Shown here piece after piece: positions 1 to 4,108 of a stretch of 64,000 nucleotides of DNA. Position 1 is the stretch's first letter. Each line of letters begins with the position of its first letter. The translations under genes and the position numbers were made by a program. The DNA lies in contig JALDZX010000001.1 of NCBI GenBank assembly GCA_022813865.1, positions 372,001-436,000 on the forward strand, given 5' to 3'. The notes beneath the pieces are model-generated. The model worked only from the letters and a program-made list of their open reading frames with translations, ran no database searches and was not told the DNA's origin. This DNA comes from Xylographa opegraphella. Lineage: Eukaryota.

Positions 1-1
1 G

Positions 2-1398
2 TCTTCCGCACCTGCTACAGGACGAGGGCAGAAACGTGGGAGAGATAACGAAATCGAAAAGGTTGGTAGCCTCAACTTTTCTTCATTGACTTCATCCCCT
101 TTGTCAGAAATATCCTCCAGTGATGGTTCAACCTTCTCTCTTGAGCCAAATGAGGCACCAACATCCACTGCACTCCCCAACACTCACCCCTCTGGCACAA
201 CGTCGCGTCCCCACTATCAAAACATAGGTAAATATCAAACCCGCAGTCGATGGATTCCAGGGATTTCCGACCTGTCCAAAACTGCAGAAGACATGTATCC
301 CGGGAAATACGAGTATGAGAAAACAAATCGCGAGATTGAAATTCACGACAACGGACGGATCACTACCATGCCCAAGGATCTCAGTTTTCGCGAAATTGAC
401 TACCCCGAACGGAAAGTCCACAAGCGTGTGGTGCACCCAGCATTGAAACGATCCGCGTACAACGCAGCCAAATCGGAGTTCTTCATGTGCCAAGATCCAA
501 AGCTCAGACTCATGATTGCTGGTGTCCCGCCGGAAGATCCTCTCCATCCTTTGCATTACTTGGATATCTCGGACCCTTCCGGCTCCTTGGACGTTACCGC
601 GGCTCATCTTTCCTTACCGTCACCTCCTAACGAAACAGAAGAGAACACGGATGAAACTTCAGTTGGCCATGATACTCAAGATGCTCAAGATTCTAACGAT
701 ACTACCTTCCAGGAAGAGTCATTTTATTCCCGCCCACATATTCGGATCCCATGTCCAGACAATCTGAAATCGCTCCTCGTCGACGACTGGGAGAACGTCA
801 CGAAGAACCTTCTCCTCGTCCCTTTGCCCTCGAAGACCCCGGTCACTCTCATCCTCGACACCTACTTCGATGAAGAGAAAGGTAAGAGACGTCTTGGCTC
901 CGCAGAGGCCGATTTGCTTGAAGAGGTGGTTGCAGGCGTGAAGGAGTATTTCGACAAGTGCTTGGGGCGGATACTACTCTACAGGTTTGAGCGAGAGCAG
1001 TTCTTCGAGGTCAGGAGTCTCTGGGAGAGCGCCGTGGGCGGAGAATGGGAAGGCAAAGGGCCCGGCGATGTCTACGGCGCAGAGCATCTGGCTAGATTGT
1101 TTGGTAAGTCGCCTCACCTTTGCTTGCACCTGCACCACCGTCCTATCCTCTCCGCACGCCCTTCACCCTCGACAAGTCCTGCCCAACACTACAACACGTA
1201 TCAGCTAATCTCCACCGGCCTCCAGTCTCCATGCCCGAGCTCATCGCCCAAACCAACATGGACCACCAAGCCGTCAACCGCCTGCGCGAAGAACTGGCCA
1301 AGCTGACGCAGTGGCTGGGCAAGAACGCGAGCAAGTACTTCACCGCCGAGTACGAGTCCGCCACGCAGGAGTACATCGAGAAGGCGAGGGGCGTCTAG
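2..1398 (+). CDS. EAF3: MRG-domain chromatin modification protein (NuA4/Rpd3S subunit), 5'-truncated by window edge; introns ~62-712 and 1104-1225
   Basis: MRG motifs PDNLKSLLVDDWENVTK, YFDKCLGRILLYRFER, YGAEHLARLF and (after splicing) VSMPELIAQTNMD; upstream exon reads GRGQKRGRDNEIEK; intron GTAAGT(1104)..CTAAT..CAG(1225); stop TAG 1396-1398. Confidence 0.93.
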
Positions 1399-1799
1399 GC
1401 CCCGTTCTGCTCCGCAACCTTCCTATTCCTGCTTGACAGACGTGGCTCGAAATCAGGAACAGGCATCCCGAAAGACTTTGGATCGTGGGTTGCGAGTGGA
1501 GCTGTTATGAAGGAGGGGGAGGCATAACGTGGAAATAATATTGTTATACATTCCTCCACTCAGATCGTGGATCCGTGATTCACTTGACAGACGCATCGAG
1601 ATGTCGCATAGCAACAGTTAGACTAGTATATCTAGGTGTACCCTCGCTCGAAGCGACTTGGTTACAGGATCATAATACGCACGGTTCTACACATGGCCCT
1701 ACCCAGAAACCTACCACCGTGAAACAATTGTATACTCAGTCTAGACCCGCACGTACAACCCACCCGCCGAAACCCCCTCCTCTCCACAACCCCGCGCCT

Positions 1800-4108
1800 T
1801 CACAACCCCCTCACCCAAGCCCTCACATCTTCGACCGCCACCCGCCCCGCCCTCTTAACCCACCCCCTCTCGTCCCCCTCCCGAAACGCCACCCAGCTCT
1901 CCAAGCCCATGCCCTCCCCACCAGGCAACACCAACCCCTCATACCCCCCTCGAATGACCCTACTCACCTCCCTCGGGCTCAAATCCTTACCCACGCGACC
2001 CTTCCCCCTCTCCGTCTGCAACAGCCCATGATAATGCGCCGCGACGTGCCGCAGCACCTGGACGGGCGAGTCCTCCGCTAGCGCGTACGCGGCCTGCAGC
2101 TTATCCAGCGTGGCGCTGTTCTCGACGAGCTTGTACACCAGGTCATCGTACGCGGCCGCGTCCGGCAGGAAGGCGCTGCCGCTGAGGAGCGCGAGGGCCA
2201 GCACACGCAGCAGCGGCGTGAGGAGGGCGTGCGGGTCACCCGACTGGGCGACCAGGTCGGCAGCGTAGGTGGCGAGGAAGCGCAGCAGGGAGAGCAGGGC
2301 TTGCCACAGCACGGGCCAGTGGTACGCCAGCGGGATGCGGTTCTGCGCCAGGCAACAGAAGAGGCGGTGCACGAGCGCAAGGCTGGCGGCGTAGAAGTCC
2401 GTGTCGAGGCGGCGGCGCAGGTTGTGCGTGATCGCGTCGGCGGCGAGGTCGAGGATGTGGGCGGCTGGAGGGCGGGGGTGCGGGGTCGGAGGGAGCAATG
2501 GAGGGCGTTGGTGGCAGAGGCGAACGGAGAGAAGCGGCGTGGGCTGGCAGAGCCGTTTGCAGAGGAGGACGTCTTCGAGGAGGATGCGGAGCGTGGTGAG
2601 TGCTAGGAGGGCGTAGAGCGAAGCGCGAGTGGAGCGGGAAGCGTGATGTAAGATGTAGGAGGTTAGGGAGAGGAAGACGCTGAAGGGGGTCTCGGGCGAG
2701 GAGGTGGTGGTGTGCGTGATGAGGCTGTAGCAGAAGAGCTTGTTCGCGAGGGCGAAGTCATAGGTGGAAAGCAAGATGGCTGCTTCGGGACCTGGGCTGG
2801 ACGGGTGTTAGCTTGGGTATCGTGGGAAGGCTGGGGGTGGAGTGCGAACAGGGCAGCAAATTTCTCTTTGTCGTCGTCGGCTGTAGCAGCCGGAGCGATG
2901 GCTTTAATGGGAGCCAGTACTCCGAGACCTATGTAGGTCAACGTGCTGCTAAGATTCCAGCCTTCCGGGACGTCTTCGACAACAGAGGCGTATCTGTTCC
3001 TGGACTGGGAAAGTGTGAGCCCGAGGCCGCTGACTATTGTTTGAATGGTAGCTTCGTTAACGAAATCTTCAAGTCTTAGCCGGTATGGATTGCGGTATTC
3101 GAACTTGTTGTAGTTCACCAGGAGCCCAAGTAGGAGGAAGGGCTCGAATGGTTGGCTATTGTTGTCTGAGTCTTGCACGTACTGGGATCTTGTTATTATA
3201 TAGTGGAAGGACCTAATGAAAAGAACATTGACGAAGTCCCGAGGCAGACATGCTATATGAAGCGATTTTCAGAGAGATATGGTCCCTGCATGAAATCCCT
3301 GCTTTGATGACTGGTGATTTGAAGGAAAATAAAGAGTCTTACCTTCATCAAGGACGGGAACAGATCGCGATGCGTAAAATAGGAGACAAGACTCGTCTGA
3401 TATGCACCTGAAGTAAGAGAAAGCGCGGCCTCTATAGATTTCTTACGGACGTCCTCTAAAAGTACGTCAGCTTATATACACATCCAGGGCAACCACACAC
3501 ATACTCGTCCGTCCTGTACGAATGGTCGTTTCGACCGCATTGGCGAAATCAGAGAACACAGCATCGACTTCGTCCAAGCCCGCGAGAACGGTAATTATAT
3601 CCGAGCTTGGATTCGTATAACGTTTCGAAAGTACACCAGCAAGAAAGACTGTCAGAGTCTGATAAGTAAGTTTCAAATATGAAGGCATTAGCAAACCCGC
3701 GGTTGCTTACTTCAAGAGCCACTTCATCTGCAGGTGCCCTCCCAGATTTGATATGACGGACAGCATGGAGGAAAAGTTGTTGTGTTTCATACTGTATATC
3801 ATTAAAAGCTGTGAAGCACAGAGGATTCCAATCACATATCGAAAAGTAAGACGTACTTGAAAGTGAAGGAGATCATCTGCGCTGACAGCTTCCAGCCGGC
3901 GTTGAAGACTTGGTTTGTCTGGACGCAGGAGAAAGAATTCGTTCCAGAATCCTTCCGAATGCGAATGATCATCCTCGTCCTGGACATCTTAGTCACATCA
4001 AGAGAGTCGAATACAAGCTATACATACTACGAATAGCTCTTCATATAGTTGAGATATTTTTGGTTGAAAAGAAGGACGTGCCTGCTGGACAAGGGGTGAA
4101 ATCTCCAT
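1800..4108 (-). CDS. ARMH3/C10orf76-like (DUF1741) armadillo-like helical protein, ~7 exons
   Basis: Exon 1 MEISPLVQQARPSFQPKISQLYEELF; internal motifs TLTVFLAGVLSKRYTNPSSDIITVLAGLDEVD, LLGLLVNYNKFEYRNPY, LAYHWPVLWQALLSLL, YDDLVYKLVE; canonical GT-AG introns join ORF pieces 3467-3694, 2663-3178 and 1800-2774. Confidence 0.82.

Follow-up and report, generated by a model that had tools for sequence, protein, structure and literature searches.

Introduction

Eaf3 is a reader of methylated lysine 36 of histone H3 that is common to the NuA4 acetyltransferase and Rpd3S deacetylase complexes. Here, we analyze the EAF3 gene at the start of a 64,000-nucleotide (nt) stretch of Xylographa opegraphella DNA (contig JALDZX010000001.1 of assembly GCA_022813865.1, positions 372,001 to 436,000; the whole stretch is referred to as the window), and in particular a 651-nt stop-free segment at window positions 62 to 712 that separates the coding regions of the chromo barrel and MRG domains. 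In animals, splice isoforms of the homologous MRG15 and its chromodomain-less paralogue MRGX alter this reader-to-scaffold architecture while the MRG domain is kept, and the long MRG15 isoform carries a short insertion inside the chromodomain. Among the modes of alternative splicing in fungi, intron retention is the commonest. A second protein results when the retained intron is stop-free and has a length that is a multiple of three, although the frame-preserving cases in fungi are usually short and species-specific.

Exitrons are the closest described class of element. As far as the summary of Marquez et al. (2015) in PMC5602073 goes, they are thought to arise by intronization of an ancestral exon, and their retained form predominates. 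A cursory literature search found no fungal exitron of this kind and no account of the EAF3 feature. At the Xylographa locus, our comparisons suggest that 62 to 712 is probably an exitron-like, alternatively retained coding intron, from which a compact Eaf3 and a long isoform would be made.

A stop-free segment with complete splice signals in EAF3

The gene lies on the forward strand and is already open at the window start, with frame 2 free of stops from 2 to 1306. The translation of 2 to 1105 matches the Pfam MRG family (PF05712, E 2.7e-41), the match starting at residue 234 (about nt 701). The window's own gene model (P0001, 543 amino acids (aa)) combines a chromo barrel (PF11717/PF22732) with MRG (PF05712), and its closest named relatives are the “Esa1p-associated factor” proteins of Xylographa vitiligo, X. 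trunciseda and X. bjoerkii (81 to 83% identity). With the N-terminal chromo barrel and C-terminal MRG domain of the Eaf3/MRG15 family, the gene is, as judged by homology, the EAF3 of a lichen-forming ascomycete resembling Xylographa; its chromo-barrel exons precede the window. The features of the locus within the window are as follows.

2 to 61, forward strand: 3′ end of the EAF3 upstream exon (...SSAPATGRGQKRGRDNEIEK); the codons for RDNEIEK end at 61
62 to 712, forward strand: 651-nt, 217-codon stop-free in-frame segment at a phase-0 intron position, read as an exitron-like coding intron
62 to 67, forward strand: donor hexamer GTTGGT with T at +3, also Val-Gly codons; weaker than the GTAAGT of intron 2
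431 to 556, forward strand: conserved peptide motif VHPALKRSAYNAAKSEFFMCQDPKLRLMIAGVPPEDPLHPL, P0001 residues 263 to 304; hit of 84 bits with the motif hidden Markov model (HMM)
693 to 697, forward strand: branch-point-like CTAAC, read as Ser-Asn; branch A 16 nt before the acceptor
698 to 712, forward strand: pyrimidine-rich run and acceptor (...TACTACCTTCCAG); TTCCAG at 707 to 712, CAG being a Gln codon
713 to 1103, forward strand: exon for the first part of the MRG domain (EESFYSRP...AEHLARLF; Pfam PF05712), starting GAAGAGTCA
1104 to 1225, forward strand: ordinary intron 2, 122 nt, phase 1, GTAAGT...CTAAT...CAG; P0001 junction ...ARLF/VSMPEL
1226 to 1398, forward strand: final EAF3 exon, ...EKARGV, with stop TAG at 1396 to 1398

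An earlier sequence-only reading had proposed the segment as an exitron-like intron, and its account of the signals (GTTGGT at 62 directly after RDNEIEK, CTAAC at 693 to 697, TTCCAG ending at 712) is exact to the nucleotide. Its count of 217 codons without a stop in the EAF3 frame was reproduced as well: no stop was counted in that frame, and 4, 12, 7, 10 and 11 were counted in the remaining five. The same reading had the segment exceed every other intron of the window severalfold in length; this holds for EAF3 intron 2, the sole intron delimited, which is 5.3 times shorter.

The segment has the build of a U2-type intron. GT follows the upstream exon directly (AAG/GTTGGT, with a non-consensus T at +3), and CTAAC at 693 to 697 lies in the usual range (CTRAY 10 to 40 nt before YAG) of the CAG at 710 to 712, with the pyrimidine-rich run between them. 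No GTNNGT other than that at 62 occurs in the segment, and 62/712 is the sole in-frame pairing of that donor with a CTRAY...YAG acceptor inside it. Shorter internal introns from the same donor were considered and rejected, as the acceptors at 107, 120, 440 and 662, each with a branch-like motif, all break the frame.

The segment occupies an ancestral intron position

A metagenome scan with the EAF3 alignment yielded 80 loci, and both flanking anchors (the end of ...EIEK upstream and EE.F...P...DDWE downstream) could be placed in 49. A GT...YAG segment of 53 to 1038 nt lies exactly between the anchors in 48 of these 49 loci, and all 48 segments end in YAG. Since 39 of the 48 contain a stop or have a length that is not a multiple of three, they must be spliced out. 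Twelve of the 48 (53 to 197 nt) have the size of an ordinary fungal intron, and the transcript-like protein P0212 aligns to the exons flanking a 182-nt gap in locus L062, so that relatives do have an intron at the orthologous place. These alignments identify the junction as an ancestral phase-0 EAF3 intron position. Locus L019, the single anchored locus without any segment between ...EIEK and EE.F, suggests intron loss at the junction in that lineage.

Several lichen-type loci carry unusually long versions with a broken frame (413, 589, 602, 623, 625, 810, 879, 971 and 1038 nt), and three long types in addition to that of the window keep an open reading in frame (L006, 483 nt; L009/L020, 777 nt; L048 to L050, 789 nt). 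The long lichen versions have a pyrimidine at donor +3 (GTTGGT, GTCGGT, GTTCGT) and CTAAC or CTGAC before YAG.

The segment evolves as coding sequence

A true intron position with full signals would also be expected of a neutral intron that is open by chance, and ab initio predictors keep any open in-frame intron, in which case the gene models that include the segment would be annotation artefacts. Several results argue against this explanation. From base composition, an analytic estimate puts the chance of 217 open codons at 7e-5. The eight best non-self matches to P0001 (81 to 87% identity) span 100% of the query, insert included, and a search with the insert alone recovered eight relatives at 69 to 80% identity. 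In 10 of 10 Xylographa-group proteins, the insert is open and its frame continuous from the upstream exon, in agreement with the frame preservation that a real coding insert should exhibit according to the sequence-only reading; identity of the insert to the window is 70 to 81% (mean 75%), rising to 81 to 89% in the motif stretch (residues 260 to 306), and the flanks of the same 10 proteins are 91 to 96% (upstream exon) and 97 to 98% (MRG exon) identical. All six gap blocks in the 10-protein insert alignment are whole codons, and the very start of the insert (VGSLNFSS.TSSPLS) is conserved within the group.

Read-through of intron 2 in plain open reading frame (ORF) calls from the same group served as a neutral control internal to these genes and species. 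In this read-through, similarity breaks down and the translations run into stops after 2, 29 and 43 residues, whereas the stops, frameshifts and loss of similarity among close relatives that characterize a neutral intron are not seen in 62 to 712. When 19 long ORFs from other parts of the window are used to train a log-odds score of codon usage, the outcome is likewise specific to the frame: the insert scores +0.15 bits per codon in the EAF3 frame against −0.13 and −0.42 in the other two, with the MRG exon at +0.28. This signal is clear in 242 to 660 and weak in 62 to 300. A search of window positions 1 to 1600 against Rfam (E up to 1) gave 0 matches, so no Rfam family accounts for the conservation, and a hosted small nucleolar RNA or structured RNA was rejected as its cause on the same result. 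Given these results, a neutral intron is disfavoured already and appears very improbable. The alignments and the codon-usage signal together indicate that 62 to 712 evolves as protein-coding sequence in the Xylographa group.

The nearest proxy for the ratio of non-synonymous to synonymous rates (dN/dS, omega) of the Xylographa insert is another open insert type, found in loci L009 and L048. Between their junction inserts omega is 0.41, with 0.03 and 0 in the flanking exons, and about 41 synonymous and 57 non-synonymous changes are observed where about 24 and 74 would be expected under neutrality. This insert type is under weak but real constraint. The inserts of L009/L020 and L048 to L050 are rich in Lys, Ala and Pro, basic and without the motif, and their 3′ end strongly resembles that of an intron (GCTAAAC, a C/T run and CAG).

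A conserved motif within an insert predicted to be mostly disordered

The insert has a Ser/Thr/Pro-rich start, a motif of about 45 residues and an acidic tail. Aligning the long forms of distant lichens gave the motif as HPxL..(N)xAK..FF..QDP...LMIAG.P.....LHPL, with changes limited to conservative substitutions and whole-codon indels, a pattern that again speaks against neutrality. Named models that bear it come from Lambiella, Loxospora, Pycnora, Pleopsidium, Candelina, Candelaria and Sticta, and Peltigera and Umbilicaria are added through clusters. At E ≤ 1e-3, the motif HMM matched 114 of the 259 EAF3 proteins collected among the matches listed (the full set may be larger); among loci, it matched L006, L007/L008, L028 and the window. 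In inserts of the Usnea/Alectoria type, the motif has diverged (...KITVAGIPLDETPADL...). Among 1.84 billion representative proteins, a profile search returned 33 motif clusters, of which 15 were new to the collection (10 with MRG, 5 short fragments). Apart from a Zn2Cys6 domain that separates motif and MRG in four proteins, the clusters revealed no further family context.

In these four proteins (P0287, P0289, P0290 and P0291, from some fungi), a single ORF encodes the motif, then Zn(2)-Cys(6) (PF00172, E 1e-7 to 1e-10), then MRG, and P0289 additionally has the upstream ...KDNDIEK anchor; such an EAF3 form would carry a sequence-specific DNA-binding domain within its linker. In the soil metagenome locus L028, a weak motif match of 24.8 bits (627 to 802; ...DPKARIPIAGIPSE...) is followed by SLPSPP and lies about 350 nt upstream of the MRG exon, so that the range of the motif may be wider than the named lichen groups.

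AlphaFold2 modeling of the 543-aa form with a 62-row alignment gave a weak model, with a mean predicted local distance difference test (pLDDT) score of 52.8, with most of the insert below 50 and two islands at residues 229 to 243 (pLDDT ~75) and 261 to 290 (65 to 69). The latter is the motif, and the “ordered-looking stretch” pointed out from the sequence alone is thus the most conserved part of the insert and one of two islands of moderate confidence. The “extra domain” that had been envisaged between the chromo barrel and MRG domains is an overstatement, as the insert is predicted to be mostly disordered with one conserved motif. Searches of Pfam with 62 to 712 gave no family, those of the Protein Data Bank (PDB) by sequence, with the insert and with the motif profile, gave 0 matches at E up to 10, and the ESM Atlas gave no usable match. 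A predicted complex between insert residues 222 to 312 and the MRG domain (357 to 543) scored 0.00, a result that speaks neither for nor against docking.

Homologous open inserts are removed in relatives

Compact, full-length EAF3 proteins were found in Logan assemblies, on contigs of 1.1 to 1.7 kb with one uninterrupted ORF across all intron positions. Other Logan EAF3 proteins correspond to unspliced ORFs, beginning at exon borders and continuing into introns, and by this contrast the compact proteins were read as derived from mRNA. Three pairs of such transcript-like proteins and genomic ORFs were compared.

P0164 (323 aa, 1399-nt contig, junction DNDIEK/EETFNL) and genomic ORF P0118: flanks identical at 53/53 and 129/129 residues, 231-aa stop-free insert in the genomic ORF
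P0266 and genomic ORF P0098: flanks identical at 53/53 and 129/129 residues, 230-aa insert
P0063 (21 contigs) and P0035/P0121: flanks identical at 78/78 and 127 to 128/129 residues, 277-aa insert that starts with VG and contains the motif, as in the window

The 90% cluster of P0164 includes Usnea florida eaf3. Its 1399-nt contig is too short for a gene with a 693-nt insert and the other introns, and the identical flanks argue against a paralogue. These pairs indicate that an open in-frame insert is precisely removed at EIEK/EE in three other lichen lineages. The compact junction, which the sequence-only reading had ascribed to ascomycete Eaf3, is real, as nothing stands between ...EIEK and EE.F in 60 of the 158 EAF3 proteins anchored on both sides. 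From the spliced form of these relatives, we infer that 62 to 712 is spliced in this species as well. Among the 80 metagenome loci, no same-species transcript at ≥95% identity was found for a motif-bearing locus; the sole pair at that identity is P0212 with L018/L062, which have a 182-nt intron and no motif.

A different explanation for the protein-level constraint is that the ancestral intron has been fully exonized in the Xylographa lineage, so that the 217 codons are always translated and the splice signals are relics. This would fit the clear constraint itself, the gene models of the group, all of which keep the segment, and the weak donor with T at +3. The three signals are intact and properly spaced at the exact ancestral boundaries, however, and homologous open inserts, including the motif-bearing VG type, are removed in the transcript-like sequences of relatives.

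The ends of the inserts bear on the same question. Among the 158 proteins with both anchors, 97 have an insert of at least 30 aa, and all 97 inserts end in Q (CAG); they start with VG (61), AS (25), VR (4), VC (3), VS, VN, MS or FG (1 each), counts that are not independent as many of the 97 are close relatives. The starts in which V precedes G, R, C or S match the codon form GTN-NGN and account for about 70 of the 97, and the interchange of unlike residues with a common codon form suggests constraint at the nucleotide level. Near the insert end, S-N is kept in the Xylographa group (TCT AAC in the window, giving CTAAC) amid a variable acidic repeat, the next relatives have I-N at this place, also compatible with YTAAC, and the Usnea/Alectoria type alternates between FTD and FTN, fitting TTTACTGAC in the related loci L042 and L051. 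These nucleotide readings were derived from the codons of protein sequences. Protein function does not readily explain the terminal CAG together with the S-N/I-N pattern in a tail that otherwise varies, and a constitutive exon consequently appears unlikely.

Evidence for and against alternative retention

Several observations weigh against an alternatively retained coding intron. Besides the non-consensus donor and the weak codon-usage signal in the first third of the insert (62 to 300), 25 of the 97 inserts (the Usnea/Alectoria type) start with AS instead of V, so that a GT donor is not universal, although AS-type inserts are still removed in transcript-like sequences. A search for RNA sequencing runs with window positions 1 to 1500 listed none, the spliced form is known from relatives only, and the transcript origin of the compact proteins was deduced from their uninterrupted ORFs and not from run metadata. 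Among the matches listed, no transcript-like long form with chromo barrel, insert and MRG was found in Logan, which is weak evidence, and the full-length long forms (20 of 20) are all genome-annotation models. In some lineages, continuity with the upstream exon is lost: the motif of L007/L008 reads in the frame of the MRG exon but is shifted by +1 from that of the upstream exon, and in L002, L042 and L051 the 3′ part is in the MRG frame with the upstream frame broken. About 12 of about 115 motif proteins have their start within the insert.

Frame continuity may thus be preserved more widely between motif and MRG than between chromo barrel and motif, and this leaves room for a further explanation, in which the intron is always removed in full-length transcripts and its ORF is kept for another product. 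An alternative 3′ splice site or internal start would then give a motif-plus-MRG protein lacking the chromo barrel, and the full-length long form would never be made. The frame relations just described and the proteins that start inside the insert would be in line with such a product, and the transcript-like proteins among the matches listed are all compact. Set against this are the continuous frame from the upstream exon in the window and 10 of 10 relatives, with whole-codon indels only, and the conservation of the very start of the insert. In addition, 62 to 712 contains no in-frame internal acceptor with a branch-like motif, and its in-frame ATGs lack conservation within the Xylographa group. 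Taken together, we regard a separate product of this kind as decidedly improbable.

Two groups of loci illustrate how the frame varies. The 589-nt segments of L007 (3680 to 4269) and L008 (3642 to 4231) are one nucleotide longer than a multiple of three, and the two loci are identical over 2000 nt; their MRG-frame ORF, which opens shortly upstream of the donor, includes an ATG (MDFINSF...), and P0053 and P0278 start at a Met homologous to it. In L003 to L005 (3963 to 4773), the 810-nt segment has 14 to 16 stops in the exon frame and none in the +1 frame, which encodes a stretch (…VTAEIPLEEYTPEDLVQKVAKKR…) similar to inserts of the Usnea/Alectoria type. The segment may represent a version that has decayed or is spliced differently.

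Returning to alternative retention, the claim of the sequence-only reading that two isoforms exist has gained support from the intron position, the coding constraint and the splicing seen in relatives, whereas its long form has no transcript among the matches listed. We infer the retained form from the ORF and the conservation of the motif. In the model that we propose, an ancestral phase-0 intron would have expanded in lichen-forming lineages and gained in-frame coding sequence, remaining a live intron while its retained form came under selection for the encoded peptide. Splicing from 61 to 713 would give the canonical compact Eaf3 of about 326 aa, in which the chromo barrel is joined to MRG via RDNEIEK/EESFYSRP. 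Upon retention the same frame would continue into a 543-aa isoform with a linker longer by 217 residues, provided that retained transcripts are translated, as we assume. As a working proposal, the motif could be a docking element in the reader-to-scaffold linker that alters the use of Eaf3 in its complexes; the sequence-only reading had suggested that NuA4 versus Rpd3S behaviour could change.

More tentatively, lichen ascomycetes may have turned the intron into a regulated module, with splicing producing housekeeping Eaf3 and retention producing a motif-bearing isoform with a different partner. One splicing decision would then retarget complexes of the NuA4 and Rpd3S type, and this switch would have persisted as these lineages diverged; we consider this broader scenario possible but doubtful. 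If a second isoform with a docking motif in its linker is indeed made, it would represent a new regulatory layer on a core chromatin pathway.

Annotation of the EAF3 locus

Public EAF3 models disagree, being long in Xylographa, Peltigera and Umbilicaria and compact in Lasallia, with odd junctions in Usnea florida and Alectoria sarmentosa; annotation pipelines thus handle the locus inconsistently. The junctions of the latter two models (P0260 of U. florida, …GQK/HSKIKFTDKPQQQEETF…; P0169 of A. sarmentosa, …ATGR/DQRRSS…) are unlike the EIEK/EE of the transcript-like P0164 and P0165, and both models are probably mis-annotations. In the window, the EAF3 frame also happens to be open through intron 2 to 1306 (1104 to 1306), and ORF-style callers therefore produce 434-aa chimeras with a meaningless tail (P0004, P0006 and P0277). 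Downstream, two minus-strand ORFs of 335 aa (1800 to 2807) and 201 aa (2663 to 3268) point to a putative neighbouring gene that converges on the 3′ end of EAF3.

Comparison with known systems

Compact Eaf3/MRG15 of Pezizomycotina (~320 to 335 aa) is the product of the same gene, with chromo barrel (PF11717/PF22732) and MRG (PF05712), and has the same ...EIEK/EE.F..RP junction that the spliced product would have here. In the compact-Eaf3 genes, the junction intron measures 53 to 325 nt and in most cases contains stops or frameshifts, and neither the 217-residue insert nor the motif has a counterpart.

The parallel with animal MRG15 lies in a changed path between reader and scaffold. In contrast to the animal insertion within the chromodomain, the lichen form is a linker module of 160 to 340 residues between the domains, and no sequence similarity between the motif and animal MRG15 emerged from the PDB searches with the insert and motif profile. 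Compared with the usual frame-preserving retention in fungi, the EAF3 segments (483 to 1000 nt) are far above the usual intron size, and their motif recurs across distant lichens.

The likeness to exitrons, as these are summarized in PMC5602073, is closer. The segment lies inside an annotated coding exon (P0001, like all Xylographa models, continues through it), it has no stop and a length divisible by three, and both the spliced and the retained form stay in frame. Like exitrons in that account, it encodes a peptide predicted to be mostly disordered, with a short conserved motif, and has a weak or non-consensus splice site. Two differences stand out against the same account: only the spliced form is found among the transcript-like sequences of relatives in the matches listed, and the segment boundaries are those of an ancestral intron in 48 of 49 related loci, a position common to loci with short, stop-bearing introns. 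An ancestral exon that was intronized is not what this distribution describes; the direction instead looks like coding sequence growing inside an ancestral intron, where it seems to have been kept by selection across many lichen lineages.

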